Below are positions 17,438 to 62,787 of a DNA stretch of 64,000 nt, in pieces. The DNA comes from Gammaproteobacteria bacterium (GTDB taxonomy: Bacteria > Pseudomonadota > Gammaproteobacteria > Burkholderiales > SG8-39): NCBI GenBank assembly GCA_041496705.1, contig JBGQFD010000001.1, forward strand, positions 39,127 to 103,126. Direction: 5' to 3'. Every line of letters starts with the position of its first letter. Position 1 is the first letter of the stretch. Both the position numbers and the translations under genes were made by a program. The notes under the pieces are model-generated. The model searched no databases. It was given only the letters and a program-made list of their open reading frames with translations, and was not told the DNA's origin.

Positions 17438-17550
17438 GATGACCTCCTTCTGTGCTGGTTCGCCACGCATGTCCAATTCCCCAAAAAACATCGGGCCCGG
17501 GTTTGACCGTCCGCATTGCAGACAACCGAACCGCAGCCCGTTTGCACACG

Positions 17551-21047: not shown

Positions 21048-21210
21048 AGAGGGGCAGCATCCGGGGGTTACCGGCCGGCAATAGGTTGATATTCTAGCAA
21101 CTTTCGGATGCTCCCCGGGCGCCAGCGCGGTAGAATGCTGTCATACCGGGGGGACGGCCGCCGGCATCGCCGGCGGTTCGGACGCGGACCACTACGACTC
21201 TTACCAAGGC

Positions 21211-22545: not shown

Positions 22546-22551
22546 GGGACG

Positions 22552-22953
22552 ATGCCACGCTTCCGCTATCACGCGCTGTTGTTCGGATGCCTGGTGCTGA
22601 CCGGTTGCGCGTCGTTCAGGAACTTCAACGAGGACCTGGTCGGGATGTTCGCGGCGAAGGGTCAGAGGGAACTCGAAGTCGCCATCAAAGCCTACGAAGA
22701 CGGGGAGTACGCCTACTCGGCAAGGCTCCTGCAGGCAAGCCTGGATTCGGGCCTGCGCGGGGCGGCCAACCAGGTGCGAGCACACAAGTACCTCGCGTTT
22801 CTTCACTGCGCGGCCAGCCGCATACAACAGTGCCGCGACGAGTTCAGGAAGGCACTCGACATCGACCCTTCCTTCGATCTCCGGGACGACGAAGTCGGGC
22901 ACCCCGTGTGGGGTCCGGTTTTTCGCAGCCTGAGAACGACCTCCAGGAAATAA
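22552..22953 (+). CDS. small lipoprotein with TPR-like helical repeat
   Basis: 133 aa with lipobox LVLTGC. Only 6-nt gaps separate it from both neighbouring genes. Confidence 0.65.
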   Translation: MPRFRYHALLFGCLVLTGCASFRNFNEDLVGMFAAKGQRELEVAIKAYEDGEYAYSARLLQASLDSGLRGAANQVRAHKYLAFLHCAASRIQQCRDEFRKALDIDPSFDLRDDEVGHPVWGPVFRSLRTTSRK

Positions 22954-22959
22954 CCGGCC

Positions 22960-32952: not shown

Positions 32953-33470
32953 TGTATCAACTCCTGAAACAGATCGCAAAGACCGGCATCGTCACCGAGC
33001 CCGCGCCGCTCCCGGATGCGGCACTGCGCGAAACCGAGCAGCGGCTGGGCGAGGTGATCCTGCGGCACTTCGGGCGCGCGCTGGCGATCCGCCACGTAGA
33101 CGCCGGATCGTGCAACGGCTGCGAACTCGAGATCCATGCGATGAACAGCCCCTACTACAACCTCGAGCGGCTCGGCATCAAGTTCGTCGCCAGCCCGCGC
33201 CATGCCGACCTGCTGCTGGTGACCGGGCCGGTGTCGCGCCATATGGAGGTCGCGCTCAAGCGCACCTACGACGCCACACCCGATCCCAAGCTGGTCGTGG
33301 CGATCGGCGACTGTGGCTGCACGGGGGGAGTGTTTGGCGAGAGCTACGCGAGCTGCGGACGCGTGGCTAACGTGATCCCGGTGGACATCGCCGTGCCCGG
33401 CTGTCCGCCCGAACCGCTAGCGATCATGCGCGGCATCCTCACCGCGATCACCCCCGGAAAACGGCGCTAG
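32952..33470 (+). CDS. HyfI/HycG-like NuoB-family [4Fe-4S] subunit
   Basis: 172 aa, with the ATG overlapping the upstream TGA. Cluster cysteines are retained (GSCNGCELE, IGDCGCTGG, PGCPP). Confidence 0.85.
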   Translation: MYQLLKQIAKTGIVTEPAPLPDAALRETEQRLGEVILRHFGRALAIRHVDAGSCNGCELEIHAMNSPYYNLERLGIKFVASPRHADLLLVTGPVSRHMEVALKRTYDATPDPKLVVAIGDCGCTGGVFGESYASCGRVANVIPVDIAVPGCPPEPLAIMRGILTAITPGKRR

Positions 33471-36184: not shown

Positions 36185-37255
36185 ATGGGCAGCAAATACA
36201 AAATTCTCATCATGGGCGCCTCGTACGGTTCGCTTCTCGCAACCAAGCTGGCGCTCGCCGGGCACGCGACGCATCTCATCTGCCTGCCGGCCGAAGCCGA
36301 GCTGATCAACAAGGAAGGCGCAATCGTTCGCATGCCGGTAAAGGGGCGCGAGGGGCTGGTCGAGATCAACTCCAGGAACCTGCCGGGCAAGATATCCGCC
36401 GGCGGCACCACGGGCGTCAATCCTTCCGATTACGATCTGGTGGCACTCGCCATGCAGGAACCGCAGTACCGTTCGCCGGGCGTGCGCGAGCTGCTCGCCG
36501 CGGTCGCCAAGTCCAGGGTGCCGTGCATGTCGATCATGAACATGCCGCCGCTGACGTATCTCAAGCGCATTCCGGGCGTCGACGTCGAGGCCTGCCGCAG
36601 CTGCTACACCGACGCCAGCGTCTGGGATACGTTCGACCCCAAGGTCATGACGCTGTGCAGCCCGGACCCGCAGGCGTTCCGCCCGCCGGAGGAAAAGGTG
36701 AACGTCCTGCAGGTGAGGCTGCCGACCAACTTCAAGTCGGCGCGCTTCGATTCGGAAGCGCACACGGCGATCCTGCGCCAGATCGAGTCGGACATCGAAG
36801 CCTCGCGCTTCGACACGGGTACTGGAAAGATCGAGTTGCCCGTCAAGCTCAAGGTCCACGACTCGGTGTTCGTGCCGCTCGCCAAGTGGGCGATGCTCGT
36901 CGCCGGAAACTACCGCTGCGTGCTGAAGGACAGCGTGCGCCCCATCAAAGACGCCGTGCACAGCGACCTCGAAGCCTCGCGCTCCGTCTACAACTGGGTG
37001 GTCAAGCTGTGCGTGAGGCTGGGAGCGAACGAGAAAGACCTGGTGCCGTTCGAGAAATACGCCAACGCGGCCTTGTCGCTGGGCAGCCCGTCCTCCGCGG
37101 CACGGGCGCTCGCCGCCGGCGCACCTAACATCGAGCGTGTCGACCGGCTGGTGAAGACTATAGCGGCACAGAAAGGCATGCACTCCGAAGTCCTCGATCA
37201 GACCGTTGCGCTGGTCGATGGCTGGCTGGAGAAAAACCGCAGAAAGGCCGCCTGA
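36185..37255 (+). CDS. ketopantoate-reductase-family-like NAD(P)-binding oxidoreductase, function unknown
   Basis: 356 aa starting at an internal Met with AGGAGG upstream. Rossmann N-terminus KILIMGASYGSLLATKLA. Overall ApbA/PanE-like architecture judged by eye. Confidence 0.6.
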   Translation: MGSKYKILIMGASYGSLLATKLALAGHATHLICLPAEAELINKEGAIVRMPVKGREGLVEINSRNLPGKISAGGTTGVNPSDYDLVALAMQEPQYRSPGVRELLAAVAKSRVPCMSIMNMPPLTYLKRIPGVDVEACRSCYTDASVWDTFDPKVMTLCSPDPQAFRPPEEKVNVLQVRLPTNFKSARFDSEAHTAILRQIESDIEASRFDTGTGKIELPVKLKVHDSVFVPLAKWAMLVAGNYRCVLKDSVRPIKDAVHSDLEASRSVYNWVVKLCVRLGANEKDLVPFEKYANAALSLGSPSSAARALAAGAPNIERVDRLVKTIAAQKGMHSEVLDQTVALVDGWLEKNRRKAA

Positions 37256-39794
37256 TTCAGGCGCTGATTCTCCTATCACTGCCGCGGTTGCCCGTGATAG
37301 CCTTTTCACGGAGAGGGACCGCGCAGTCGTGCTCGAAAGAATAGGCAAGTACGAGATCCGCCTGCAGATCGGACGCGGTGCGATGGGCATCGTGTACGAA
37401 GGTTTCGACCCGGCGATCGGCCGGCGCGTGGCGATCAAGACGCTGCGCACCGAAATGTTCGAGCCGAGCCAGCTCCCCAGCGTGCTTGCCCGCTTCAAGC
37501 GCGAAGCGCAGTCGGCGGGGCGCCTCTCGCATCCCCACATCGTCACCATCCACGATTACGGCGAAGAACAAGGCACGCCGTACATCGTGATGGAGTACAT
37601 CTCCGGCGACGAGCTGGGCCGCCAGCTCGAACGCGGCTCTCGGCTTAAGCCCGACCAAGTGGTGCGCATCATGACCGCGCTCCTCGCGGCGCTCGCGCAC
37701 GCGCACGAACACGGGGTCATTCACCGCGACCTCAAGCCCTCGAACATGTTCGTACTGAACGACGGCTCGCTCAAGGTCGTGGACTTCGGCATCGCGCGGG
37801 TCGAGGCCTCCGACCTCACCGACACCGGCACGACGCTCGGCACCCCCGCCTACATGTCTCCGGAGCAGTTCCTCGCACTTCCGGTGGATGCGCGCAGCGA
37901 CCTCTACTCGGCGGGCGTCATCCTCTACCAGCTCCTTACCGGCGACAAGCCGTTCACCGGCTCGATCACCGCCATCATGCAGAAGGTGCTGCACCAGCAG
38001 CCGATCGAGCCCTCGGTCCTGAACCCGACGCTCTCGAATGTCTGGGACGCCGTGGTGCTGCGGGCGATGGCGAAAAAGCCCGAGGCGCGCTACCAGAGCG
38101 CGCGGGAATTCCTCGAGGCGGTGAAGGCGGCACAGGCGGCGGAGCGCGGGGAACCGGTCGCCACCCCAGCGCACGCGGCCGCGCCGCAGGGCGGGCGCGA
38201 GGACGAACGTACGATCCGCGTGCGGCCGGGACCGGATCCCGAGGCGACATTGCCCTCGCTGCCGGCAGCGGAAGGCAGCCGGGCGGGCGAAGCACCGCGC
38301 TCGCGCAAGGGGCTCGCCATCGCCGCGGGGCTCATCGCCCTCCTCGGACTCGGCGCAGGGCTCGTCTATCTGCGCAACGACTCCGACCGCACGTCGATCG
38401 AGCGCGCGCGCCAGGCAGCGGAGCGCCGCGCCGCCGACGCGGAAGAGCGCGCGAGGAAGGAATCCGAGCGCGCGAACCAGGAAGCGCTAGCGCGGGCGAA
38501 GACCGAAGCGGCGCGCAGCGAAGACCAGCGACGCGAGGCCGAGGCGGCCAAGGCGCGTGCCCGCAAGGAGGCGGAACGGGCGAAGCAAGAGACCGACGCG
38601 AGGGCCAAAGCCGAGGCCGATCGCAGGGAAGAGGAGCTTCGCCGCGAGGCGGACGCGGCCAAGGCGCGCGCCGCGGAAATCGCGCGCAAGGAAGCAGAAG
38701 AAAAGACGAGGCTGGCGGCGCTGCGGGCGGACGAGGCAAAGCGCAAAGCCGCCTCCGCGGCACTGGCGAAAAAGGAGGCCGATGACAGAGCAAGGGATGC
38801 CGCAAGGAAGGCGGACGCGGCGAGAAAGGCCGAGGAAGCCCGCAAGGCGGAAAAAGCGCGCGCCGAGCAGGCCCTGCGCGACAAGTACAAGGCGGGAAGC
38901 GGACTCCGCGACTGCATCGACTGCCCGCAAATGGTGGTGATTCCCGCCGGCGAATTCACGATGGGTTCGCCGGCGTCGGAGGCCGGGCGCTTCGACCATG
39001 AGAGCCCGCAGCACGCCGTGCGGATCGCACAGACGTTTGCGCTGGGGCAGAGCGAAGTCACGTTTGCCCAGTTCGAACGATTCGTAACGGAGGCCGGATA
39101 CAAGACCGAGGCTGAGCGCGACGTCGGCAAGGCGGGATGCCTCGGGTTCAACTTTTCCGATCGAACGGCTACCAAGGACGACTGGCTGGCGGGAAGGAGC
39201 TGGCGCAACCCCGGATTCGAGCAGACCTCCGACCGCGACCCGGTGGTCTGCGTGAGTTGGAACGACGCGAAAGCGTACGTTCGCTGGCTATCGACAAAAA
39301 CCGGGAAGACCTATAGATTGCCGACCGAGGCGGAATGGGAGTATGCCGCGCGCGCCGGGACGAAAACCGCGCGCTACTGGGGCGACGATCCCAATCAAGC
39401 GTGCCTCTATGCGAACGTAGCCGATCAGAGCACCTACAGGACAGGGGTGGGGCCGAGCGCGAAGACCTGGTCGCGCTCGAGCGCGCGCAGGCACGAATGC
39501 AACGACGGCAGATACTTCACCGCACCGGTCGGCTCGTACCGGGCGAACGGCTTCGGGCTGTACGACGTGCTGGGGAACGCGTGGGAATGGACCGAGGATT
39601 GCTGGAACGCAAGCTATACGGGTGCTCCGGCCGACGGCACGGCCTGGCTGACCGGAGATTGTTCCCGACGCGTGCTCCGCGGCAATTCCTGGGTCCAGGA
39701 ACCGCGCTACGCACGCTCGGCGAACCGCGACCGGGGCCCTTCCGATTTGCGGCGCACCGGTAGCGGTTTCCGTGTTGCCAGAACGCTCGAATGA
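37206..39794 (+). CDS. Hanks-type Ser/Thr kinase - TM - charged coiled coil - FGE-sulfatase (SUMF1-like) domain fusion
   Basis: Kinase motifs GRGAMGIVY, VAIK, HRDLKPSNM, DFGIA and SPEQ. TM helix LAIAAGLIALLGLGAGLVYL. FGE-domain motifs include WEYAARAG, GNAWEWTEDCW and RGNSW. The true start may be the GTG at 37329 (VLERIGKYEI), which would remove the 50-nt overlap with the previous gene. Confidence 0.85.
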   Translation: MRWSMAGWRKTAERPPDSGADSPITAAVARDSLFTERDRAVVLERIGKYEIRLQIGRGAMGIVYEGFDPAIGRRVAIKTLRTEMFEPSQLPSVLARFKREAQSAGRLSHPHIVTIHDYGEEQGTPYIVMEYISGDELGRQLERGSRLKPDQVVRIMTALLAALAHAHEHGVIHRDLKPSNMFVLNDGSLKVVDFGIARVEASDLTDTGTTLGTPAYMSPEQFLALPVDARSDLYSAGVILYQLLTGDKPFTGSITAIMQKVLHQQPIEPSVLNPTLSNVWDAVVLRAMAKKPEARYQSAREFLEAVKAAQAAERGEPVATPAHAAAPQGGREDERTIRVRPGPDPEATLPSLPAAEGSRAGEAPRSRKGLAIAAGLIALLGLGAGLVYLRNDSDRTSIERARQAAERRAADAEERARKESERANQEALARAKTEAARSEDQRREAEAAKARARKEAERAKQETDARAKAEADRREEELRREADAAKARAAEIARKEAEEKTRLAALRADEAKRKAASAALAKKEADDRARDAARKADAARKAEEARKAEKARAEQALRDKYKAGSGLRDCIDCPQMVVIPAGEFTMGSPASEAGRFDHESPQHAVRIAQTFALGQSEVTFAQFERFVTEAGYKTEAERDVGKAGCLGFNFSDRTATKDDWLAGRSWRNPGFEQTSDRDPVVCVSWNDAKAYVRWLSTKTGKTYRLPTEAEWEYAARAGTKTARYWGDDPNQACLYANVADQSTYRTGVGPSAKTWSRSSARRHECNDGRYFTAPVGSYRANGFGLYDVLGNAWEWTEDCWNASYTGAPADGTAWLTGDCSRRVLRGNSWVQEPRYARSANRDRGPSDLRRTGSGFRVARTLE
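38390..38900 (+). repeat. low-complexity K/E/A/R-rich coding region (TolA-like charged helix)
   Basis: About 170 codons of AERRAADAEERARKESERANQEALARAKTEAA... with degenerate internal periodicity, inside the kinase-FGE gene. Confidence 0.7.
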
Positions 39795-51553: not shown

Positions 51554-52303
51554 ATGCTCAAGGCGAGGGACCTCACCCTGCACATCGGCGGCCGCGAGCT
51601 GGTGCGAAGTCTCGACATCGCGCTCGCGCCGGGTGAGTGCTGGGCGCTGCTGGGGCGCAACGGCGCGGGAAAGACGAGCCTCATCCTCGCGCTCACGGGC
51701 TTGCGCGCGGCAAACGCCGGTTCGATCGACCTGGAGGGCAGACCGCTCGCGTCCCTTGCGCGCCGGGAAGCGGCGCAGCGCATCGGCGTGCTGCTGCAGG
51801 ACGAGGATGCGGATTTCTGGGGCAACGTGATCGACTACGTCATGCTCGGGCGCCACGCGCGCACCCGCAGTGCCTGGGGCCGCGACGAAGAAGGCGCAGC
51901 GCTCGCGCGGCGCTGGCTCGGGGAACTCGACCTCGCCGGGCACGCCGCCCAGGCCTACCGCACGCTCTCGGGCGGGGAACGGCAGCGGGCGCGCATTGCG
52001 CAGCTCTTCGTGCAGGACCCGGATATCCTGCTGCTCGACGAGCCGCTGCAGCACCTCGACCTGCGCTACCAGGCGCTGGTGATGCGCACGCTCGCCGCGC
52101 ACGCCGCCGCCGGCAAGACGGTGCTCGCCGCACTGCACGAGCCCGCGCACGCCGCGCGATACTGCGGATTCTGCGTTTTACTGTATGATGCGGGCCGCGC
52201 GAGCCTGGGGCGCTCGGGCGACATGCTCACCCAAGCCAATCTCGAGGCGCTGTACCAGTGCCGGCTGGAAACCGCCGGCGCGCTGAGTTTTCATCCCATT
52301 TGA
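51554..52303 (+). CDS. ABC transporter ATP-binding protein (FecE/BtuD-like)
   Basis: 249 aa with Walker A GRNGAGKTS, signature LSGGERQR and Walker B ILLLDEP. Confidence 0.85.
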   Translation: MLKARDLTLHIGGRELVRSLDIALAPGECWALLGRNGAGKTSLILALTGLRAANAGSIDLEGRPLASLARREAAQRIGVLLQDEDADFWGNVIDYVMLGRHARTRSAWGRDEEGAALARRWLGELDLAGHAAQAYRTLSGGERQRARIAQLFVQDPDILLLDEPLQHLDLRYQALVMRTLAAHAAAGKTVLAALHEPAHAARYCGFCVLLYDAGRASLGRSGDMLTQANLEALYQCRLETAGALSFHPI

Positions 52304-53622
52304 TCAAGAAATTCATCCGGCGCGTTCTGCGGCTCGACGCAGCCGAGCCGCACCTCATCCCGCGCGAGCGGCACGGCATCGGCCGCGAGGCCATTTCGCC
52401 GGGCTCGCGCAAGGTCTGCGAGACGCTGCAAAGCCACGGCCATACCGCGTACGTGGTGGGCGGCGCGGTGCGCGACCTGCTCCTCGGCCTGCGCCCCAAG
52501 GATTTCGATGTCGCCACCGACGCCGATCCCGAGGACGTGCACCGGCTGTTCCGGCGCTCGCGCCTTATCGGCCGGCGCTTCAAGCTAGTGCACGTGATGT
52601 TCGGCGAGGAGACGGTAGAGGTGTCCACATTCCGCTCACGCACCGCCGCGGAGACCGACGAGCATGGACGTGTCCTTCGCGACAATATCTATGGCACGCG
52701 CGAGGACGATGCGATCCGGCGCGATTTCACGGTGAACGCCCTGTACTACGACCCGGCCACCGAGACCATCCTCGACTATCACAACGGGTTGAGGGACATG
52801 CGCCACAAGTCCGTGCGCGTCATCGGCGACGCCCGCGCGCGCTACCGCGAGGACCCGGTGCGCATGCTGCGCGCTGCCCGCTTCGCGGCGAAGCTCGGCT
52901 TCACCATCGACGAGCGCACGCGCAAGCCCATCCGCGAGATGGCCTCGTTGCTGGAAAACGTCCCCGCGTCGCGGGTCTACGAGGAAATACAAAAGCTGCT
53001 GCTCTCCGGCCACGCCGCCACCAGCCTGCGACAGCTGCGCAGCGAAGGCCTGCACCATGGCCTCTTGCCGCTGCTCGATGTCATCTTCGAGCAGCCGATG
53101 GGAGAACGCTTCGTGCAACTCGCGCTCGAGCAAACCGACGCGCGCGTGCGCTCGGGCAAGCCGGTGTCGCCGGCGTTCCTCTTCGCCGCGCTGCTCTGGC
53201 ACGAAGTGCTGGCGGCATGGAAGAAACTGGAGCATCAGGGCCAGCACCGGATTCCGGCGCTTTTTCGCGCGATGGACACGGTGCTCGACATCCAGACCGG
53301 GAAGCTCGCCATCCCGCGGCGCTTCACTGCGGTGATGAAGGAGATCTGGGCGATGCAGCCGCGCCTGGAGCAGCGCAGCGGCCGCCGCCCGTTCGCTGTG
53401 CTCGCGAACGACAAGTTCCGCGCCGGCTTCGATTTTCTGGTGCTGAGAGCACAAAGCGGTGAAGCCCCCGAGGAGCTCGCGCAATGGTGGCAGCGATTCC
53501 AGCGCTCGAGCGAGGCCGAACGCCAGGCGATGCTGCTCGAGCCGCAAGCCGGCGAACACCGGCGTCGGCGGCGCCGGCGGCGAAAGCATCCGTCCGCGCC
53601 ACCGGACGCGGCGCCGGTTTGA
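52300..53622 (+). CDS. pcnB: poly(A) polymerase I
   Basis: GHTAYVVGGAVRDLLLG, PKDFDVAT and RRDFTVNALYY. I prefer the TTG at 52300 (LIKKFIRR, with a TTGA overlap to the upstream stop) over the first listed start at 52258. Confidence 0.9.
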   Translation: MIKKFIRRVLRLDAAEPHLIPRERHGIGREAISPGSRKVCETLQSHGHTAYVVGGAVRDLLLGLRPKDFDVATDADPEDVHRLFRRSRLIGRRFKLVHVMFGEETVEVSTFRSRTAAETDEHGRVLRDNIYGTREDDAIRRDFTVNALYYDPATETILDYHNGLRDMRHKSVRVIGDARARYREDPVRMLRAARFAAKLGFTIDERTRKPIREMASLLENVPASRVYEEIQKLLLSGHAATSLRQLRSEGLHHGLLPLLDVIFEQPMGERFVQLALEQTDARVRSGKPVSPAFLFAALLWHEVLAAWKKLEHQGQHRIPALFRAMDTVLDIQTGKLAIPRRFTAVMKEIWAMQPRLEQRSGRRPFAVLANDKFRAGFDFLVLRAQSGEAPEELAQWWQRFQRSSEAERQAMLLEPQAGEHRRRRRRRRKHPSAPPDAAPV

Positions 53623-53658
53623 GCCGGAGCCGTATAATTTGAGCCTAACGCCCGAATC

Positions 53659-54576
53659 ATGAAACGCGTTCTGCTTGTGCATTTTTCGCAAACCGGGCAG
53701 CTCGCCCGCGTGGCTCGCCGCCTCACCTCGCCGCTCTCCGGCGCGGGCGACGTAGAGCTGGTGGAGGAAGTACTGCGTCCACGCCAGCCGTATCCCTTTC
53801 CGTGGCCGCTGTGGAAGTTCCTCGATACCATGCCGGAATCAGTGCTGCTCGATCCGCCCGCACTCGAACCTCTCTCGAGGCGCGTGGACGAGGATTTCGA
53901 TCTCATCATCCTCGCCTACCAGGTGTGGTATCTCGCGCCCGCCGGTCCGATGACTGCCTTCCTCAAGAGCCAGACCGCGACGCGCCTTCTGCGCGGGCGC
54001 CCGGTGGTCACGGTGATCGCCTGCCGCAACATGTGGTTGCTCGCCCAGGAAACCGTCAAACGCCTGATCGGCGAGGCGGGCGGAATTCTGCGCGACAACG
54101 TGGTCTTGACAGACCGCGGCAGCGCGCTGGAGACCTTCATCACCACGCCGCGCTGGCTGCTCACGGGGCAACGCGACGCGTTCTGCGGCCTGTCGGCGGC
54201 CGGAGTCTCGGAGGATGACATCGCGGGCGCCGACCGGTTCGGCCGCGCGCTTCTCGACGCGCTGCGCGCGCACCGCGAACGCGACACCGCACCGATGTTG
54301 GCGGGCCTGGGCGCAGTGCGCGTGGATCCGCGCCTGATCTTCAGCGAGCGCGCCGCGCGACGCGCGTTTTCGGTCTGGTCCCGCGTCATCCGGCTCGGCG
54401 GTCCCCAGGGATCGGTGGGCCGCCTGCCGCTGCTGGCGCTATTTTCCGTATATCTTGTCGCAATGATCTTGCTCGTCGTGCCCGCGAGTCTGCTGCTGCA
54501 GCGTCTGGCGCGGCCGCTGCTCACGCGACACCTGCAATCGCTGCAGACTTACTACGAACTTCCTTCGGGGCGCTGA
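53659..54576 (+). CDS. darA: DarA-like dialkylresorcinol-condensing-enzyme family protein (flavodoxin-like fold, C-terminal TM helix)
   Basis: 305 aa. N-terminus MKRVLLVHFSQTGQL and overall size match my memory of DarA. It sits immediately upstream of a KAS III-like gene, as in dar loci. Confidence 0.6.
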   Translation: MKRVLLVHFSQTGQLARVARRLTSPLSGAGDVELVEEVLRPRQPYPFPWPLWKFLDTMPESVLLDPPALEPLSRRVDEDFDLIILAYQVWYLAPAGPMTAFLKSQTATRLLRGRPVVTVIACRNMWLLAQETVKRLIGEAGGILRDNVVLTDRGSALETFITTPRWLLTGQRDAFCGLSAAGVSEDDIAGADRFGRALLDALRAHRERDTAPMLAGLGAVRVDPRLIFSERAARRAFSVWSRVIRLGGPQGSVGRLPLLALFSVYLVAMILLVVPASLLLQRLARPLLTRHLQSLQTYYELPSGR

Positions 54577-54612
54577 CGCGACCCGAAGAGCGAATCGACC
54601 GGGAAACCTCGA

Positions 54613-55770
54613 ATGGACCGCCGCACCGCCTACATCACGCGCAGCTCCATCTGCCTGCCCAACGCGCCGGTGGAGAATGACCAGGTAGAGGCGATCCTGG
54701 GCCAGGTCGGCGGGCGGCCTTCGAGGGCGCGACGCGTCGTGCAGCGCAGCAATGGAATCCGGCGGCGCTACTACGTCATCGATCCGGCCACCGGCCAGCC
54801 GAACTACACCAACGCCAGCCTCACCGCGAAGGCCGTCAAGGGTCTCGCAAGCAAGGGTTTTGCTCTCGATGACCTCGCGTGCCTGGTGTGCGGCACCTCG
54901 AACCCGGACCAGCTGATGCCCAATCACGCGGTCATGGTTCACGGCGAGCTCGGCTCTCCAGTCTGCGAGGTCGCTGCGACGGCCGGGGTATGCGTTTCCG
55001 GCGCCACGGCGCTGAAGTACGCATGGATGTCGGTGCTGTCCGGAAGCGCGCCCAACGCCGTCGCGACCGGTTCCGAGGTCGCGTCGCTGGGCCTGCGCGC
55101 GCAGAACTATCCTCCCGAGGGGCCGGACACCGCCGAGAATCTGGAAGCACATCCGGAGCTGGCGTTCGAAAAGGATTTCCTGCGCTGGATGCTGTCCGAC
55201 GGAGCCGGCGCGCTGCTCGTCGAACCCGCGCCCCGGCCCGGACTGAACCTGCGCATCGACTGGATTGACGTTTTCTCCTACGCGCACCTGCTGCCCGCCT
55301 GCATGTACGTCGGCGCCGAAAAGCAGCCCGACGGCGGGCTGCGCGGCTGGATGCTCTACTCTGCCCGCGAACGTGAATCGAATTCGGTGTTCGCCTTGAA
55401 GCAGGACGTGAGGCTGCTGAACGAAGAGGTCATCGAGCACACCCTGGTCAAGCCGCTGGCGCGCGTCATCGCGCAGCGCTCGCTCGCTGCGGCGGACGTC
55501 GACTGGTTTCTGCCACACTATTCGTCGGAATATTTCCGCAAACCGGTCGCCGACGGACTCGCCCGGGCCGGTCTGCCGATCCCGCAGGAGCGCTGGTTCA
55601 CCAATCTCGAACAGGTGGGCAACGTCGGATCGGCGTCGATTTACATCATGCTGGACGAACTGCTACAAAGCGGGCGCCTGAAGGACGGGCAGCGTCTCCT
55701 GTGCTGGGTGCCGGAGAGCGGACGATTCTCGAGCGCCTTCATCGGTCTCACCGCCGTAACGCATGCGTGA
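54613..55770 (+). CDS. darB: KAS III-like ketosynthase (DarB-like)
   Basis: 385 aa, FabH-like, with active-site region ATAGVCVSGATAL and a C-terminal GNVGSASIYIML. Confidence 0.7.
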   Translation: MDRRTAYITRSSICLPNAPVENDQVEAILGQVGGRPSRARRVVQRSNGIRRRYYVIDPATGQPNYTNASLTAKAVKGLASKGFALDDLACLVCGTSNPDQLMPNHAVMVHGELGSPVCEVAATAGVCVSGATALKYAWMSVLSGSAPNAVATGSEVASLGLRAQNYPPEGPDTAENLEAHPELAFEKDFLRWMLSDGAGALLVEPAPRPGLNLRIDWIDVFSYAHLLPACMYVGAEKQPDGGLRGWMLYSARERESNSVFALKQDVRLLNEEVIEHTLVKPLARVIAQRSLAAADVDWFLPHYSSEYFRKPVADGLARAGLPIPQERWFTNLEQVGNVGSASIYIMLDELLQSGRLKDGQRLLCWVPESGRFSSAFIGLTAVTHA

Positions 55771-56158
55771 GCGGGAAGTACCCCAGGAGGGTAACTCCAC
55801 CCTGGCGGGCCATCGCAAGGCAGTCTACGCGGCCGACGCGGACGGCAGGCTGCGGCTGGTGCCTTCGCGCGGCTGGGAGGTCGAGGAGATCGTCACGCGC
55901 CAGGCGGTGGACGACCTGGCGCGGCGCGCGGCGGATGCGCAAGCCCGGGCGCTTTCCGGGGAGTCTTCCCCGCTCGAATGCCACATGTACCGTGCGCGCA
56001 TGGACCTCGGTCTGCTCTCGCAAACCACCGGCATCTGGCGCTGGCGCGTGCGGCGTCACTTCAGGCCGCGCGTGTTTGCGCGCCTGCCGCTCGCGCTGAA
56101 GGCGCGTTACGCCGAGGCGCTCGGGATCACGGTCGACGCGCTCGAGAAGGTGGACTAG
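55763..56158 (+). CDS. hypothetical protein
   Basis: 131 aa with an ATG overlapping the darB-like end by 8 nt. I recognise no family. Confidence 0.45.
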   Translation: MREREVPQEGNSTLAGHRKAVYAADADGRLRLVPSRGWEVEEIVTRQAVDDLARRAADAQARALSGESSPLECHMYRARMDLGLLSQTTGIWRWRVRRHFRPRVFARLPLALKARYAEALGITVDALEKVD

Positions 56159-56160
56159 AA

Positions 56161-57168
56161 ATGCCCGACGCCTTCGTGCACGCGCACGCCTCACACTGCG
56201 AGTCCGGCGTCATGTCGTCGCTCCTGCGCCATCACGGCCTGCCCCTGTCCGAGGCGATGGCCTTCGGCTTGTCCTCCGCCTTGGCCTTCGCCTACCTGCC
56301 GTGCATCCGCATCAACGGGCTGCCGCTCATATCCTTCCGCATGCCGCCGCGAGCCATCGTCAAGGGCCTCCAGCGCCGGCTAGGCCTCGCGATGCACTTC
56401 GAGACTTTCCGCTCGCCCGCGGACGGAACGGCGCGGCTCGACGCGCTGCTCGACTCGGGGAAGCTCGTCGGCCTGCAGGCTTCGGTGTTCTGGCTGCCGT
56501 ATTTTCCGCCCGACCTGCGCTTTCATTTCAACGCGCACAACCTGCTCGTCTACGGCCGCGAGGGCGATGAATACCTGGTCAGCGATCCGGTCGGGGAAAC
56601 GCCGGTCCGCTGTGCGCGCAAGGATCTCGAAAAAGCGCGTTTTGCGAAGGGGGCGCTCGCGCCGAAGGGGCTGCTCTACTACCTGACCGCGCCGCCGCCG
56701 GCGCCGGACTGGTCGCTCCTCGGGCGGCGTGCGCTCGCGCGCACCGCACACATCATGCTGCACGCCCCAGTGCCCCTCGTCGGCGTGCGCGGCATCGAGA
56801 TCCTCGCGCGCCGCGTCGGGCGGCTGCCCCTCGCCGACGGCGGCGAGCGAGCGCGCCTGTACATCGGCAACATCGTGCGCATGCAGGAGGAGATCGGCAC
56901 GGGCGGCGGCGGCTTCCGCTTCCTCTACGCTTCGTTCCTTCAGGAGCTCTCGTCGGTGACGCGCTACGCTGCGCTGGAAGCACTGGCCGGGCGCCTGGTG
57001 GAGATCGGGGACCGCTGGCGCGAGTTCGCGCTCTCCGCGGCGCGCATGATCCGCGGGCGCGACGCACTCGCTCCGCCCAGACTCGCCGCGCTCCTGCGCG
57101 CGCTCGCCGGAGAAGAGAGGCTTTTTTTCCGAGACCTGCTACGCACAACACGCGCATGGGCACGCTGA
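56161..57168 (+). CDS. BtrH N-terminal-domain / DUF4872-like protein (papain-like fold)
   Basis: 335 aa starting at an internal Met. N-terminal HCESGVMSSLLRHHG resembles the BtrH_N catalytic-Cys region. Assignment is from memory. Confidence 0.6.
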   Translation: MPDAFVHAHASHCESGVMSSLLRHHGLPLSEAMAFGLSSALAFAYLPCIRINGLPLISFRMPPRAIVKGLQRRLGLAMHFETFRSPADGTARLDALLDSGKLVGLQASVFWLPYFPPDLRFHFNAHNLLVYGREGDEYLVSDPVGETPVRCARKDLEKARFAKGALAPKGLLYYLTAPPPAPDWSLLGRRALARTAHIMLHAPVPLVGVRGIEILARRVGRLPLADGGERARLYIGNIVRMQEEIGTGGGGFRFLYASFLQELSSVTRYAALEALAGRLVEIGDRWREFALSAARMIRGRDALAPPRLAALLRALAGEERLFFRDLLRTTRAWAR

Positions 57169-58085
57169 GCCTCGAGGGCGTGTCGTTCCGCTACCCCGGC
57201 CGCGTCGAAGCCGTGCTGGATGAGGTCACTCTCGACATTCCCGCGGGCGGCATCTTCGGCCTGCTCGGGCCGAACGGCGCCGGCAAGACCACGCTGATTG
57301 CGGTGGTCACCGGGCAGTTGCGCGGGGCGAGCGGGCGTATCTTCCTCGGGGGCGAACCGTTCGAGCGCGTGCGCCGCGCGCGGCCGCGCTGCCTGGGGCT
57401 GGTGCCGCAGGAGTACGCGTTCTACCCGATGCTGACTTGCCGGGAGAATCTTCGCTTCTTCGGCGCGGTGCAGGGCCTTGCCGGCGACGAGCTGCGGCGT
57501 CGCATCGCCGCGGTCGCGGTGTTCGCGCGCATCGAAGCCGTGCTCGCTCGCCGCGCCGGGCAGCTCTCCGGCGGCCTGAAACGCCGCCTGAATCTCGCCA
57601 TCGGCCTGCTCGCCGAGCCGCAGCTGCTGCTGCTCGATGAGCCCACGGTGGGCGTGGACCCGCAATCGCGCGCCTTCCTGCTCGAATCGATCCGCTCGCT
57701 CGCCGCGGACGGCCGCACCATCGTCTACACCAGCCATTACATGGAGGAAGTGCAGGCGATCTGCGACCGCGTGGCGATCGTCGACCGCGGCCGGGTGCTC
57801 GTGACCGGCGCGCTGTCGGATCTGCTGCAGGACCGTTCCGGCCTGCTGACGCTGCGTCTGCGCTCGCCGCTGCCGCCGGCGCTCGCCGAGGCGTGGCGCA
57901 CGCGCCACGCGCTGCAGGACGACGGCGAGGCGCGCTATCGCCTGCGGCTGCGCGCGGCCGACGAAGTTGCCGCGATCCTCGCGTCGGCGCACAGCGCGGG
58001 TTGCGAGCCGCTGGCGATCGCCTACGGGCGGCGCGACCTCGAGCAGCTTTTCATGCAGCTGACCGACCGGTCTCTGCGGGACTAG
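57156..58085 (+). CDS. ABC transporter ATP-binding protein (ABC-2 exporter type)
   Basis: 309 aa with Walker A GPNGAGKTT, signature LSGGLKRR and Walker B LLLLDEP. Confidence 0.85.
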   Translation: MGTLSLEGVSFRYPGRVEAVLDEVTLDIPAGGIFGLLGPNGAGKTTLIAVVTGQLRGASGRIFLGGEPFERVRRARPRCLGLVPQEYAFYPMLTCRENLRFFGAVQGLAGDELRRRIAAVAVFARIEAVLARRAGQLSGGLKRRLNLAIGLLAEPQLLLLDEPTVGVDPQSRAFLLESIRSLAADGRTIVYTSHYMEEVQAICDRVAIVDRGRVLVTGALSDLLQDRSGLLTLRLRSPLPPALAEAWRTRHALQDDGEARYRLRLRAADEVAAILASAHSAGCEPLAIAYGRRDLEQLFMQLTDRSLRD

Positions 58086-58097
58086 GGACAGCCCCTG

Positions 58098-59294
58098 ATG
58101 CGCCGCGTGCTCGCCTTGTGGGAAAAGGAATGGCTCGTCCTGGCGCGCGACGTGCACGGCCTGGCAGTGCTGTTCCTCATGCCGGCGGTGTTCATCGTGG
58201 TGATGTCGCTCGCGCTGAGCGACGCTTTCAAGGAAGACGGCGCGCGCCAGGCTGAATTCGCCGTGCTCGCCGCTGACGATGCGCCGCTCGCCCAGCGCTT
58301 CGCGCAAAGCCTGTCGGGCGACGGGTTCCGCGCGGTGAGCGCCCCGGCGAACGAGGCCGAGGCGCGGCGAAGCGTGCGCAACGGCAAGCCGGCTCTGGTG
58401 CTGGTCCTCCCGCGCGAACTCGCCCGCGGCCTGGCGGCACCTCCGGGCGGCCCGGCCCCGGCGTTGACGCTGCTCGCCGATCCGGCGCTGCCGTCGCTGC
58501 AGCTCGCTGCCTTCCAGCAACGCGTGCGCGGCGCGGTGCTCGAGCTGGGCGTTTCGGTGCTCCTCGCGCGTGCCGGCGCGCCCGCCGGCACCGGCCTGCC
58601 CGAACTGAGGCGCGCCGCGGCGCTCTCCGTCGAGGTGCTCGGCCAATCCCGGGTGCAGCGTCCCTCCTCGGTGCAGCAGAACGTTCCCGCCTGGCTGATC
58701 TTCGGCATGTTCTTCGTGGTGCTGCCGATCGCATCGCTCTTCATCGTCGAACGGCGCGACGGGACGCTCGCGCGCCTGGTGGCGCAGCAGGTGCCGTTCC
58801 CGCTGCTGCTGCTCGGGAAACTCGCGCCGTTCTTCGTGGTGAATCTCGGGCAGACGGCGCTGATGCTGCTCGCCGGGCGCATGCTGGTCCCCTGGTTCGG
58901 TGGCGAAACCCTGGCCCTGCCGGCGCGCTGGGATCTGCTCGCGGCGGTGGCCGCCAGCACCAGCTTCGCGGCGATCGCCTGGGGACTGCTGGTGGCGGTG
59001 TGCGCGCGCACGCTCGAGCAGGCGACGGTGATCGGCGGCGTCGGCAACATCCTCGCCGCCGCGGTGGGCGGCATCATGGTGCCGCGCTTCGTCATGCCGC
59101 AGGCGATGCAGACGCTGGCGGATTATTCGCCGATGGCCTGGGCGCTGGAGGGCTTCCACGCGGTACTCCTGCGCGAGGGGACCACCGCCAGCATCGCCGC
59201 ACCCTGCGCGAAGCTGCTCGCCCTGGCGGCCGCGCTGCTCGCGCTCGCGCTTTTCGTGCATAGTCGCCGCCGCGTCCTGCATTCCGCCCAATGA
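58098..59294 (+). CDS. ABC-2 type transporter permease
   Basis: 398 aa with an N-terminal TM helix, a large loop and a C-terminal five-TM bundle, typical of ABC-2 permeases. Confidence 0.8.
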   Translation: MRRVLALWEKEWLVLARDVHGLAVLFLMPAVFIVVMSLALSDAFKEDGARQAEFAVLAADDAPLAQRFAQSLSGDGFRAVSAPANEAEARRSVRNGKPALVLVLPRELARGLAAPPGGPAPALTLLADPALPSLQLAAFQQRVRGAVLELGVSVLLARAGAPAGTGLPELRRAAALSVEVLGQSRVQRPSSVQQNVPAWLIFGMFFVVLPIASLFIVERRDGTLARLVAQQVPFPLLLLGKLAPFFVVNLGQTALMLLAGRMLVPWFGGETLALPARWDLLAAVAASTSFAAIAWGLLVAVCARTLEQATVIGGVGNILAAAVGGIMVPRFVMPQAMQTLADYSPMAWALEGFHAVLLREGTTASIAAPCAKLLALAAALLALALFVHSRRRVLHSAQ

Positions 59295-59557
59295 GCCCGC
59301 GCGAATCGCTGGTGGCCGAGCTGACGGCGCTGGTACTCGAAGCGACGGAAAAATCCCTCGACGGCGCGCCGCTCGCCGCCGACGAGCCGATCTTCGGACC
59401 CGATTCGCGTCTCAAACTCGATTCCCTGGATGCCCTGCAGGTGTCCATGGCGCTCTTGAAGCGCTACGGCGTCCGACTCACCGACAGCAAGGAAACGCGG
59501 CGAATTCTTTCCTGTGTCGGCAACCTCGCCGACGCCCTGCTGCAGCGGCGCGCATGA
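59291..59557 (+). CDS. acyl carrier protein
   Basis: 88 aa with phosphopantetheine-attachment motif LKLDSLDALQV. Overlaps both neighbours by 4 nt. Confidence 0.75.
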   Translation: MSPRESLVAELTALVLEATEKSLDGAPLAADEPIFGPDSRLKLDSLDALQVSMALLKRYGVRLTDSKETRRILSCVGNLADALLQRRA

Positions 59558-60642
59558 TGCCCGTGTTCGTACGCGCGGCGGCGCTCGCATGCTCGCTCGG
59601 GCCGGACCTCGCGACCGCGGTGCAGCGCCTGTCGGGGAAGCCCCTCGCGCCGGATCGCGCTGCCGCGGCGGGCGCGGACTGGCCGTATTTTCCGATTCCC
59701 GTCGTCGCCGGAGACTGGACGCAGCGCGCCGGGGCCATCTCGCGCGCGGTCGCCGCCGACCTGCGGGGCCGCGCCGCGCTCAAGCCCGGGGACTGGGAGG
59801 CGCTGCCCTGCTTCGTCGGATCATCTTCGCTTTCGGCCGGCGCATGGGACGCGGGAGGCCGGGAGGCCTTGCGGCCGCCGCTGGAATTCTCCGCATCGCT
59901 CGCCACATGGTTCGGCGCGCGCGGCCCGGTGATCTCCGTCAACACCGCCTGCACTTCGGGACTTTCGGCATTCGACATCGCGGCGAATCTCGTCGCCGCG
60001 GGTGAGTGTGGCGACGCGCTGGTGCTTGGCGTGGAGTTCGCGAACCGAATGACGCTTTCCGGATTCGCCGGCATGGAGCTACTGTCGCGCACCGCTGCCC
60101 GCCCCTGCGACCGCGACCGCGACGGCTTGGTGCTCGGCGAGGCGCTGGGCGCCGTGCTCGTCTCCGCAACGCCAGGACCATGGCGCGTCGCCGCGCTCGC
60201 CTCGCAAATCGACGCGGCGAACGTCACCGGTCCGCCGCCCGGCGGCGAAGCGGCGGAAGCGACGATGCGCAGCGCCCTCGACGCCGCTGGCTGGCGAAGC
60301 GGCGCCGTCGACCTGGTCAAACTGCAGGCGGGCGGCGGGCCGATCGCCGATCTCGCCGAGGCGCGGGCGCTGCGGCGGGTGTTCGCGGCGCCGCCCGCGG
60401 TGGTTTCTCTCAAGGGCGCGCTCGGCCACACGCTGGGCGCGAGCGGCCCCGTAGAGCTCGCGCTGCTCCTCGAATGCCTCGCACAAGGGCGCGTGCCCGC
60501 GACCTGGGGATTCGAGACGCCCGACGAAGAGGTCGGCCTGGAGCCGGCGGGCGGCGACGCCGGCGGGGTGAAGCGCGTATTGTTCAACCTCTCCGGATTC
60601 GGCGGCAACGTCATGAGCCTGGCGCTCGAAAGGACCGGCTAG
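59554..60642 (+). CDS. beta-ketoacyl-ACP synthase (KAS I/II family)
   Basis: 362 aa with VNTACTSGLSA (active-site Cys) and LKGALGHTLGASG (second His). The first catalytic His position reads Q (KLQAGGGPIADLAE). Confidence 0.8.
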   Translation: MMPVFVRAAALACSLGPDLATAVQRLSGKPLAPDRAAAAGADWPYFPIPVVAGDWTQRAGAISRAVAADLRGRAALKPGDWEALPCFVGSSSLSAGAWDAGGREALRPPLEFSASLATWFGARGPVISVNTACTSGLSAFDIAANLVAAGECGDALVLGVEFANRMTLSGFAGMELLSRTAARPCDRDRDGLVLGEALGAVLVSATPGPWRVAALASQIDAANVTGPPPGGEAAEATMRSALDAAGWRSGAVDLVKLQAGGGPIADLAEARALRRVFAAPPAVVSLKGALGHTLGASGPVELALLLECLAQGRVPATWGFETPDEEVGLEPAGGDAGGVKRVLFNLSGFGGNVMSLALERTG

Positions 60643-61290
60643 GTGCAGCTGCTCGCGCCCACCACGCTGAGGATCGCTCCCGCAGAATTGCCGCCGCGGG
60701 TCCGCGCGCGCTTCGCCACCGAGCTGCGTCGCGCCGGGAGCTTCGCGCAGATCGGCATGCTCGGCGCGCAAGCGTGCCTCGACGCCGCCGGCGGCGAAGG
60801 GCGCCTGGGCGTGCTGTGGTCCTCGCGCCTCGGCGCGATGGGCGCCTTCCGCGCGGCGTTCGACGACGACCTGCGCCACGGCGCGCCGGTGATGCCTTTC
60901 ACCTTCATCGGCATGCAGCCCCACCTTGCGGCGGCGCTGCTCGCGCAGCGGCAAACGGTCGCGCGCAGCGCCCACCTGCATCTCGTCGCCGAGGCCTGGC
61001 CGTGGCTGCTGCGCGTCGCGCAGGGCTGGCTCGCCAGCTGCGAGCGGGTGCTGGTCGGCTGCGTCGAGGAGTCCGGCGGCGACGACGCCGCGCACCGCAG
61101 CGACTGGTGCCTGGTGCAGAATGCAGCCGCAGCCGGGTCGGTCCGCGCCGAACCCGCGCGCGACCCCATGGCGACCCGCGCAACGACCGCAGACTGGATC
61201 GGCCGGATCGGCGACTGGCGCGCCGGCGCGCGTACGCCCCTCGTCCTCGCCGGAGACGGCGAGGCGTGGAGCTTCGGAGTTCCGGACTGA
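60643..61290 (+). CDS. truncated ketosynthase-like / chain-length-factor-like protein
   Basis: 215 aa with a GTG start directly after the KS stop. Weak KS N-terminal-like region (SFAQIGMLGAQACLDAAG). No active-site Cys motif. Confidence 0.5.
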   Translation: MQLLAPTTLRIAPAELPPRVRARFATELRRAGSFAQIGMLGAQACLDAAGGEGRLGVLWSSRLGAMGAFRAAFDDDLRHGAPVMPFTFIGMQPHLAAALLAQRQTVARSAHLHLVAEAWPWLLRVAQGWLASCERVLVGCVEESGGDDAAHRSDWCLVQNAAAAGSVRAEPARDPMATRATTADWIGRIGDWRAGARTPLVLAGDGEAWSFGVPD

Positions 61291-61294
61291 TCCC

Positions 61295-61786
61295 ATGGCC
61301 GCGGTGAACGCCTTCGTCGGGCTGGGCGCCAACCTCGGCGAGCCGCGGGCGCAGCTGCGCGCCGCCGCGGTGGCGCTCGCGGAAATTCCGCGCACGCGGC
61401 TGATGGCGCTCTCGCCGCTGTACCGCAGCGCGCCGCTCGGCGTCACGGCGCAACCCGATTTCGTCAACGCCGTCGCCGCAATCGAGACCGGGCTCGCCCC
61501 CTGGGCCCTGCTCGAGGCGCTGCTCGCGCTCGAAGCCCGCTTCGGCCGCACCCGGGAAACCCCAGGCGAGGCCCGGAGCCTGGACCTCGACCTGCTGCTC
61601 TTCGCGGACCGCATCATCGACGAGCCTGGACTCATCGTCCCCCATCCGCGCATGCACCAGCGCGCCTTCGTGCTCGCGCCGCTCGCGCAGCTTGCGCCGG
61701 ACCTGGTGATCCCGGGCCGGGGCCCGGTTGCCGCGCTGCTCGCCGCGTGCAAGGATCAGACCATAGAACGACTAGGCGCAGTATGA
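61295..61786 (+). CDS. folK: 2-amino-4-hydroxy-6-hydroxymethyldihydropteridine diphosphokinase
   Basis: 163 aa starting at an internal Met, with VGLGANLG, SPLYRSAPLG, RSLDLDLL and IVPHPRMHQRAFVLAPL. Confidence 0.92.
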   Translation: MAAVNAFVGLGANLGEPRAQLRAAAVALAEIPRTRLMALSPLYRSAPLGVTAQPDFVNAVAAIETGLAPWALLEALLALEARFGRTRETPGEARSLDLDLLLFADRIIDEPGLIVPHPRMHQRAFVLAPLAQLAPDLVIPGRGPVAALLAACKDQTIERLGAV

Positions 61787-62787
61787 AATCTCCCCTCATG
61801 GCCCACGCCGTGCTGCTGCTCGCTCTGCTGCTTTCGTCCGTCCACGGGCTCGCCGCGGACGCGACCATGCTGCCACCGTGGTTCACCGAGACATTCCTCG
61901 ACATCCGCGAGGACGTCGCGGACGCCGCCAAGGACGGGAAACGGCTGATGCTCTTCTTCGAGCAGGACGGCTGTCCCTACTGCAAGCAACTGCTGCAGGT
62001 GAACTTCAGCCAGAAAGCCATCGCCGACAAGGCCCGCAGCCGCCTGACCAGCGTCGTGCTCAACATCTGGGGCGACCGCGAAGTCACCTGGACCGACGGC
62101 AGGAAATTCAGCGAGAAGCAGTTCGCCACATTTCTCAAGATACAGTTCACGCCGACCCTCGTCTTCTTCGACGAGCAGGGCAAGGTGGTCGCCCGCATCA
62201 ACGGCTACTACCCGCCGCACCGCTTCGAGGCGGTGCTCGACTGGGTCGCCGGCCGCATGGAAAACCGCATCGCGCTCGCCGAGCACCTGCGCAGCGCGGT
62301 GCGCGAGCCCGCGGGCGAGCAGCTGCACGACGAGCCCTTCTTCCTCAAGCCGCCGTACGATCTGCGGCGCGTCTCGAAGAAGCCGCTCGCGGTGCTGTTC
62401 GAGACGCCCTCGTGCGCAGCGTGCGACGAGCTGCACCGCGAGGCCTTGCGCCGCCCCGAGATCGCGGAGTCGCTGAAGCACTTCGACGTCGTGCGGTTCG
62501 GGCTCGGCGATCGCACGCCCGTGGTCACGCCGGGAGGCCAGCGGCTCGCGGCGGAGGACTGGGCGCGCTCGCTCGGCATCGCGTACACGCCCTCGGTGGT
62601 GTTCTTCGGCACCGACGGCACCGAGGCGCTCCGCATCGAAGCCTACCTGCGACCCTTCCACCTGTGGGGTTCACTCGAGTACGTCGCCAGCCGCGCCTAC
62701 CTGCGCGAGCCGAGCTTCCAGCGCTACCTGCAGGCGCGCGCCGAGCGCCTGCGCGAAGGAGGCCACGCCGTCGACCTGTGGCGCTAG
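61783..62787 (+). CDS. secreted tandem thioredoxin-fold protein
   Basis: 334 aa starting at Met13 of ORF 61747..62787 (ATGA overlap with the folK stop). Signal peptide and two CxxC motifs (GCPYCKQL, PSCAACDEL). Confidence 0.7.
   Translation: MKSPLMAHAVLLLALLLSSVHGLAADATMLPPWFTETFLDIREDVADAAKDGKRLMLFFEQDGCPYCKQLLQVNFSQKAIADKARSRLTSVVLNIWGDREVTWTDGRKFSEKQFATFLKIQFTPTLVFFDEQGKVVARINGYYPPHRFEAVLDWVAGRMENRIALAEHLRSAVREPAGEQLHDEPFFLKPPYDLRRVSKKPLAVLFETPSCAACDELHREALRRPEIAESLKHFDVVRFGLGDRTPVVTPGGQRLAAEDWARSLGIAYTPSVVFFGTDGTEALRIEAYLRPFHLWGSLEYVASRAYLREPSFQRYLQARAERLREGGHAVDLWR

Follow-up and report, generated by a model that had tools for sequence, protein, structure and literature searches.

Layout of the locus between pcnB and folK

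The 64,000-nucleotide stretch of DNA analyzed here (the window), taken from contig JBGQFD010000001.1 of an uncultured bacterium of the Burkholderiales, harbors nine genes on the + strand, at 53659-61290, which lie between pcnB and folK and which correspond in content and order to an extended gene set for dialkylresorcinol (DAR) biosynthesis, referred to below as the dar module. The locus was delineated from the list of open reading frames (ORFs) together with a reading of the raw sequence. On its upstream side stands pcnB (52258-53622, + strand), which encodes poly(A) polymerase I and was recognized by TIGR01942 (511 bits, cut-off 306) as well as by the Pfam domains PolyA_pol, PolyA_pol_RNAbd, and PolyA_pol_arg_C; the module is inserted at the 3' end of this gene, whose TGA stop codon occupies 53620-53622. 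A spacer of 36 nt (53623-53658) carrying a single TATAAT hexamer at 53633-53638 leads to the darA-like ORF1 (53659-54576), after which follow ORF2 (54613-55770), a darB gene for a head-to-head condensing ketosynthase of the StlD/DarB type; ORF3 (55763-56158), of the DarG family; ORF4 (56161-57168), encoding DarH, a BtrH-related acyltransferase; ORF5 (57156-58085) and ORF6 (58098-59294), encoding respectively the ATP-binding subunit and the ABC-2 type permease of an ATP-binding cassette (ABC) transporter; ORF7 (59291-59557), encoding an acyl carrier protein (ACP, DarC); ORF8 (59554-60642), encoding a ketosynthase (KS) of the β-ketoacyl-ACP synthase (KAS) I/II type; and ORF9 (60643-61290), encoding a short KS-like protein that, judging from its predicted fold, resembles a chain-length factor (CLF). 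From ORF1 to ORF9 the successive junctions are a 36-nt gap, an 8-nt overlap, a 2-nt gap, a 13-nt overlap, a 12-nt gap, two 4-nt overlaps, and 0 nt. The stop codon of ORF9 (61288-61290) is followed by TCCC and then by the ATG of folK at 61295, leaving 4 nt between the two genes (folK, 61295-61786, + strand; TIGR01498, 137 bits, cut-off 54). The nine same-strand genes, all their gaps, the position of the hexamer, and the folK junction had been listed in an initial annotation of this DNA and were all found as described there.

The order pcnB, nine genes, folK, including the 36-nt spacer, was found again in three independent assemblies, which indicates that the locus is not an assembly artefact; the metagenome-assembled genomes GCA_041490385.1 and GCA_041477765.1 also have exactly this locus. 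Profile scores far above chance, combined with ratios of nonsynonymous to synonymous substitution rates (dN/dS) that lie, between two relatives, at 0.15-0.24 for each of the nine genes (pcnB 0.15, folK 0.24), show that these are real genes and not chance ORFs. All nine are intact and under purifying selection. An antisense ORF of 775 aa on the - strand (56964-59291) was rejected as an artefact of high G+C content: it faces four genes (DarH, ABC, ACP) with strong hidden Markov model (HMM) support and has a first-codon-position G+C of 0.87.

Correspondence with the Azoarcus dar locus

Schöner et al. (2014) described in Azoarcus sp. BH72 a dar locus, azo0283-0293, with the order darA, darB, darD (conserved hypothetical), darE (BtrH-like), darF (ABC ATPase), a Phd/PIN pair, darI (ABC permease), darC (ACP), darJ (ketosynthase), and darK (hypothetical) (PMC3949708, Table 1). 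Setting aside the toxin–antitoxin insert, the nine genes of the window reproduce darA-B-D-E-F-I-C-J-K in content and order, a match drawn from domain content, the order of the genes, and NCBIfam families common to both, and not from direct alignment; ORF3 takes the position of DarD, ORF4 is the counterpart of DarE ("BtrH-like peptidase"), and ORF5, ORF6, ORF8, and ORF9 stand in the positions of DarF, DarI, DarJ, and DarK. The Phd/PIN toxin–antitoxin pair separates the ATPase and permease genes in Azoarcus whereas the window lacks it, and no pcnB/folK context is reported for the Azoarcus locus, which is likewise betaproteobacterial and likewise has no polyene genes adjacent to it. The Azoarcus Dar proteins yield DAR in Escherichia coli, but free DAR is undetectable in Azoarcus itself, which natively makes arcuflavin, an ester of a DAR with a xanthomonadin-like aryl polyene (APE), the genes for this polyene lying at two unlinked loci (PMC3949708). 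The initial annotation had stated that no characterized product was known for this configuration; since gene content and order are those of the published locus, from which the pigment arcuflavin receives its DAR half, the configuration is not of an uncharacterized type. The genes that it had called hypothetical and BtrH-like both have curated NCBIfam models, DarG_fam and DarH_acyl. With both its chemistry and its set of genes on record, the module does not represent a new biosynthetic class, and what is new is its location together with a few local oddities.

The nine-gene module also occurs in other genomic settings. In Casimicrobiaceae (genus JACPUX01; locus L084:2787-10720) it follows a Mur-ligase-like gene among unrelated neighbors, in another lineage (L086:511-10627) it stands directly behind flexirubin/APE-type genes, namely those for a FabG2-like reductase, a PRK09116 KS, and a FlxJ-like methyltransferase, and the same gene order is kept in L085 and L087. 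No aryl-polyene genes were found in the 64 kb of the window, where Pfam scans of ~40 ORFs outside the module (~56 kb) returned housekeeping and signaling functions only. The absence of such genes, as first annotated, is thus correct for the window but does not hold as a general feature of the configuration, given the unlinked polyene loci of Azoarcus and the flexirubin/APE-type neighborhood of L086.

These observations bear on whether the module by itself could make a free, exported dialkylresorcinol or cyclohexanedione acting as a signal or antibiotic, with no polyene partner in the genome, after the model of the 2-hexyl-5-propylresorcinol of Pseudomonas or the DAR signals of Photorhabdus. 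The polyene-free window, the module's own ACP, KS pair, and exporter, the formation of DAR in E. coli by the Azoarcus Dar proteins alone, and the unrelated surroundings of the Casimicrobiaceae module would all agree with such a product. Azoarcus, however, contains only the polyene ester, with no detectable free DAR, and its polyene loci are unlinked; the nine genes of L086 follow directly on flexirubin/APE-type genes; and the described producers of free DARs have darABC only, without a BtrH-type acyltransferase (PMC6836626). The presence of this acyltransferase here, unlike in those producers, suggests a further acyl-transfer step, and we consider a free DAR to be an unlikely end product.

The DarA-like and DarB core

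The assignment of ORF2 was the most direct, with 573 bits for the StlD/DarB family model NF005293 (cut-off 450) and a full-length alignment with StlD of Photorhabdus (5gk0_A; E 1.1e-139, residues 5-382) in which the context of the active-site Cys is conserved. Under the strict NCBIfam model resorcinol_DarB (NF053539) it scored 475 bits against a cut-off of 550; ORF2 is a member of the StlD/DarB family that falls outside the narrowly defined DarB set. ORF1 was not matched by any model of Pfam or NCBIfam, and no HMM exists for DarA. This protein has 4457 homologues, two of which, at 78-79% identity (the first 78% by BLASTP), are named "dialkylresorcinol condensing enzyme" by NCBI; it is 55% identical to the gene at the same position in L086, and the same gene precedes DarB in both L084 and L086. 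In its AlphaFold2 model (predicted local distance difference test, pLDDT, 65) the predicted N-terminal domain gave Foldseek matches to flavodoxin, WrbA, and PnpB, and the C-terminal part is modeled as hydrophobic helices. ORF1 would thus be a putative aromatase, and the modeled flavodoxin-like fold fits a redox "aromatase". Of the assignments in the initial annotation, these results sustained that of DarB and agreed with that of ORF1 as probably DarA-like. Word-index searches with the DarA-like protein, and likewise with ORF9, returned close soil relatives only.

DarG-family protein, acyltransferase, exporter, and carrier protein

The genes in the middle of the module, for which BtrH-like, exporter, and carrier-protein identities had been proposed, were supported in these roles by Pfam, NCBIfam, or PDB matches, as was the KAS I/II-type KS treated below. 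ORF3 was matched by the DarG_fam model NF053536 (163 bits, cut-off 70) and stayed below the cut-off of the flexirubin_DarG equivalog model (114 against 170 bits); it had no Pfam match, and a sequence search of the PDB returned no relatives. ORF4 reached 452 bits with DarH_acyl (NF053550, cut-off 300) and contains the Pfam domains BtrH_N and DUF4872, with no hits in a PDB sequence search. Comparison of DarH by tblastn with the PLSDB plasmids detected only distant BtrH_N proteins of at most 34% identity, and the module was not found on plasmids of that collection. A literature search on the origin of the DarG and DarH names yielded nothing usable. Regarding the exporter, the ATPase (ORF5) carries PF00005 (1.3e-28), its best NCBIfam matches being DrrA- and NodI-type models under their cut-offs, and the permease (ORF6) carries PF12698 (ABC2_membrane_3, 1.3e-26) and PF01061 (2.7e-17). 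The ACP (ORF7) matched PP-binding (1.8e-3) and PRK09184 (39 bits, below the cut-off of 70), and its translation bears the phosphopantetheine-site motif LDSLDAL.

The ketosynthase and its chain-length-factor-like partner

ORF8 contains the Pfam domains ketoacyl-synt and Ketoacyl-synt_C and matched FabF structures (E 1e-27), the aryl-polyene ketosynthase ApeO (6qsp_A, 6.5e-24), and 7f28_B in the PDB. Its active site reads Cys133-Gln258-His292 in place of the canonical Cys-His-His, with the codon for Gln258 at 60325-60327. The residue lies in a KLQAGGG/KLQSGGG motif which replaces the first catalytic His of the AHGTST motif in all six lineage members examined (the window and five relatives), while the His is retained at this position in three distant DarJ-type orthologues. 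Nothing usable came from a literature search on what replacing this His by Gln does in enzymes of the KAS I/II type. Having lost the first catalytic His, ORF8 may differ or be impaired in activity; given the age of the change and the purifying selection on the gene, we regard the protein as probably functional but possibly altered.

ORF9, which starts at the base directly after the KS stop codon, had no Pfam or NCBIfam match. A search of the PDB by sequence gave a single marginal match to FabF (E 0.46), and its profile weakly matches the N-terminal half of FabF, so that a structure prediction was needed to place it. The predicted structure (AlphaFold2, pLDDT 83.6) had as its best Foldseek match the chain-length factor ApeC (6qsp_B, E 5.7e-8), followed by 7f28_A, at a sequence identity to ApeC of 14%. 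With 215 aa, the protein covers about half of a KS and is devoid of the C-terminal half bearing the catalytic His residues; the first description of this gene as a truncated KS-like protein can accordingly be refined, as far as the model allows, to a CLF-like one. An exhaustive profile search of 1.84 billion proteins recovered only 197 representative clusters of the ORF9 family, several of them with a ketosynthase fused in front, and it was only in this way that distant DarK relatives were reached. Among the proteins recovered, P0265 (519 aa) consists of a full DarJ-type ketosynthase followed by a C-terminal DarK-like region, and P0277, P0323, P0335, and P0363 likewise carry a DarK-like region at their C-termini. 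Since ORF8 and ORF9 match partner chains of the same two structures, 6QSP and 7F28, and since KS–DarK fusions exist in nature, the two are best read as a KS:CLF-type pair, and the fusions lend indirect support to a physical complex between their products.

Insertion into the conserved pcnB–folK pair

A search of species-representative genomes was seeded with PcnB, and the proteins of the window were mapped onto the 80 loci returned. In all 55 informative distant betaproteobacterial loci folK directly follows pcnB, and E. coli K-12, in which the initial annotation had named them an adjacent pair, shows a 4-nt overlap between them. Among the 21 closest loci, all from uncultured soil Burkholderiales with PcnB 77-93% identical, the module stands between pcnB and folK in 11 and is missing from 10, so that with the window included it splits the pair in 12 of 22; comparison of relatives with and without the cluster, which had been proposed as a check, therefore resolved it as a lineage-specific insertion. 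In the module-less relatives that were checked, the stop codon of pcnB either shares nucleotides with the start of folK (TTGA or GTGA) or ends 1 nt before it. Of the module-bearing loci, seven extend as far as folK, and in each of them folK abuts or is overlapped by the last dar gene. A pair that is deeply conserved and translationally coupled is thus interrupted by the module, at whose 3' end tight coupling is re-established. This abutment suggests that folK is transcribed together with the module, and the gene arrangement supports the dependence of folK on transcription through it, as had been suspected from the 4-nt junction; in cluster-less genomes and in E. coli, folK abuts or overlaps pcnB in the same manner.

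Probable gain, inheritance, and loss of the module

In a neighbor-joining tree of PcnB, three module-less genomes are basal and the crown group mixes module-bearing and module-less members. The module-less L007 nests among module-bearing genomes, and here a remnant of the module could be traced: its pcnB–folK junction (L007:5497-5550) has 24 nt in which the first ~17 nt of the pcnB–darA spacer are joined to the darK/folK junction, and its folK has the longer N-terminus typical of module-bearing genomes. We interpret this remnant as a deletion scar left by loss of the module. The dar genes and the flanks show equal synonymous divergence (dS), and G+C ranges from 0.67 to 0.74 inside the module and from 0.65 to 0.74 outside, with no break in skew; the flank-like dS and the uniform composition led us to discard a recent horizontal transfer. 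The simplest reading is one old gain near the base of the lineage, followed by vertical descent and by recurrent losses or allele replacements by way of the conserved flanks. Because the deep nodes of the PcnB tree are weakly supported, one gain with several losses is parsimonious but not proven.

Some irregular copies were also observed. In L015, a long-read metagenome-assembled genome, darB (L015:12415-13556) and the KS gene (17338-18078) appear split or partial, and in L005 (7374-8206) DarH appears shortened. These defects could be sequencing indels or the onset of gene decay.

The pcnB–darA spacer

Ten module-bearing relatives each have exactly one copy of a promoter-like motif, TGACAC-N14-18-TTATYCT, always within a pcnB–darA spacer of 93-251 nt. 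The instances read ATGACAC, 16-17 nt, and TATTCT or TATCCT, and they are located at L003:2551-2578, L004:8199-8226, L005:4831-4858, L006:2794-2821, L008:11408-11435, L009:6641-6668, L010:3947-3974, L012:11410-11437, L015:11393-11420, and L016:6633-6660; L001, the closest relative of the window, has a variant. Neither the window nor the module-less loci contain the motif. Alignment with L001 revealed that ~215 nt are deleted in the 36-nt spacer of the window, and it is through this deletion that the motif is missing.

The TATAAT hexamer at 53633-53638 stands at the deletion site and, among the cluster-bearing genomes, is found in the window only, being absent from the spacers of all 11 others. 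The hexamer can be called rare, with 4 occurrences on both strands of the 68% G+C window against 1.3 expected. It has no matching -35 hexamer, and a full sigma-70 scan of 52000-62500 detected no consensus promoter, including inside the module. As a conserved promoter it was consequently rejected, the relatives carrying another motif in its place; the initial annotation had its position right but over-read an element confined to this genome. It may have become a replacement -10 element, or expression may proceed by read-through from pcnB, and the window, lacking the promoter-like motif of its relatives, probably relies on one or the other. No Rfam family reached threshold in the spacer of the window or in the longer spacers of the relatives.

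Several of the relatives' spacers contain a 12-codon upstream ORF, ATG CGC CGC ATT CGA CGC GCG CGC CTT GGG GGG GCA TGA (L003:2517-2637, L004:8165-8285, L008:11372-11493, L016:6597-6719), the stop codon of which overlaps the darA ATG. Its role could be that of a leader peptide or of a coupling device; nothing equivalent is present in the window.

The loss of the promoter-like motif with the ~215-nt deletion, while ten relatives keep it and L001 retains a variant, raises the possibility that the module is silent or decaying in this genome and is kept mainly because its removal would disturb the expression of folK. The Cys-Gln-His active site of the KS, the abutment of folK to the last dar gene, and the losses of the module in relatives could be seen in the same light. 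Against this, all nine ORFs are intact, and dN/dS relative to L001 is ~0.09-0.29 for the six comparable genes, similar to pcnB. The His-to-Gln change, moreover, is common to the six lineage members examined, including those which keep the motif, and must therefore predate the loss of the promoter and have been maintained under selection. Expression could still be driven by read-through from pcnB or from the rare TATAAT. Taken together, we hold silencing or decay to be very improbable.

Proposed function and comparison with known systems

From the gene identities, the following route can be proposed. The ketosynthase and its CLF-like partner, with the dedicated ACP, would supply fatty-acyl-derived precursors. 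DarB would join a β-keto-acyl and an α,β-unsaturated acyl thioester head-to-head into a carboxy-cyclohexanedione, which the flavodoxin-fold DarA-like protein would aromatize to a 2,5-dialkylresorcinol. These two steps would follow the described chemistry of DarAB, in which a head-to-head Claisen/Michael condensation to a carboxy-cyclohexanedione precedes aromatization by DarA (PMC6836626). The BtrH-type DarH would transfer an ACP-bound acyl group and may form an ester to the resorcinol, and the ABC-2 transporter would carry the lipid out of the cytoplasmic membrane. What results would most likely be an envelope lipid or a pigment that contains a DAR and is of the arcuflavin/flexirubin kind, with a polyene half encoded elsewhere in the genome.

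Besides the Azoarcus locus, the known systems with which we compared the module share different parts of it. The darABC genes of Pseudomonas aurantiaca/chlororaphis, for 2-hexyl-5-propylresorcinol, have in common with it the DarA, DarB, and ACP core and the head-to-head condensation (PMC6836626), but they comprise three biosynthetic genes only, without the DarG-family gene, the BtrH-type gene, the ABC exporter, or the KS/CLF pair, and their product is a free antifungal DAR. The stilbene enzymes StlC/StlD and the DarABC signaling system of Photorhabdus resemble the window in the full-length DarB–StlD alignment (E 1e-139, PDB 5GK0) and in having the aromatase partner encoded adjacent; they differ in that the substrate is cinnamoyl-derived, or in that DarABC makes signaling DARs sensed by a LuxR solo, and in that no exporter, KS/CLF pair, or BtrH-type gene lies with them in a single operon. 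The flexirubin clusters of Bacteroidota (Chitinophaga, Flavobacterium; flx, dar) share the DarA, DarB, DarG, and DarH families and provide DAR for esterification to an aryl polyene, and the flexirubin_DarG, DarG_fam, and DarH_acyl models all match proteins of the window; their dar genes, however, are embedded in a large polyene cluster, whereas the window has none of its genes within 64 kb. The KS/CLF heterodimer ApeO:ApeC (PDB 6QSP) parallels ORF8, which resembles ApeO and FabF, and ORF9, whose predicted fold is similar to that of ApeC, the corresponding genes being adjacent in the window and fused in some organisms; here the KS reads Cys-Gln-His and the pair sits in a DAR module, not in a polyene cluster. 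Lastly, the cyanobacterial bartoloside (brt) cluster combines the DarA/DarB homologues BrtC/BrtD with a dedicated lipid exporter, but this exporter is of the DevBCA type, and the cluster has glycosyltransferases and a halogenase and lacks an ACP or a KS/CLF pair.

We consider it probable that the locus is an intact Azoarcus-type extended DAR module within the pcnB–folK pair of an uncultured high-G+C soil member of the Burkholderiales, with a product of the arcuflavin/flexirubin kind as the likeliest outcome. Several of the observations above weigh against this interpretation: ORF1 is matched by no family model and its structural model is of moderate confidence (pLDDT 65), ORF2 falls short of the strict DarB cut-off, the KS has lost its first catalytic His, no polyene genes lie in the window, the relatives' promoter-like motif is missing, the likeness to Azoarcus was established otherwise than by direct alignment, and the deep branching of the PcnB tree is weakly supported. 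The altered KS could also be taken further, to a lineage that has diverged from the arcuflavin paradigm, in which the Cys-Gln-His KS and its CLF partner build an unusual precursor for a new exported DAR-type lipid without an aryl-polyene partner, and in which the module, wedged into an essential-gene pair, ties the expression of the folate pathway to secondary-metabolite transcription and is thereby lost more slowly, if still at times; this we regard as distinctly unlikely.

Other features of the window

Folate-related genes, namely folE2 (1546-2373), thyA (8250-9059), folA (15543-16121), and folK (61295-61786), are scattered over the 64 kb, which they share with dxs, ispA, metG, dnaE, and purM. 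Two Ser/Thr protein kinases were also detected, at 21085-24150 and 37164-39794, one of which is fused to an FGE-sulfatase-type domain while the other lies behind a gene whose product has partial cyclase and PEGA domains. In the region 31400-33400, after genes for Mrp/Nuo-like membrane subunits, a crude gene caller gave only antisense-looking ORFs with no Pfam match.

Implications for the module and its lineage

The locus illustrates cleanly how, in nature, a biosynthetic operon can enter a gene junction whose 4-nt overlap is kept from E. coli to the Betaproteobacteria, and its close relatives display acquisition, vertical descent, and loss with a scar side by side. For the dar family, the last gene of the extended module, described in 2014 only as hypothetical, can now be assigned, on its predicted fold, as a CLF-like ketosynthase partner, and a Cys-Gln-His ketosynthase kept lineage-wide under purifying selection poses a testable question on ketosynthase catalysis. 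For the bacteria themselves, the module would extend the potential for DAR lipids to an abundant uncultured soil lineage.

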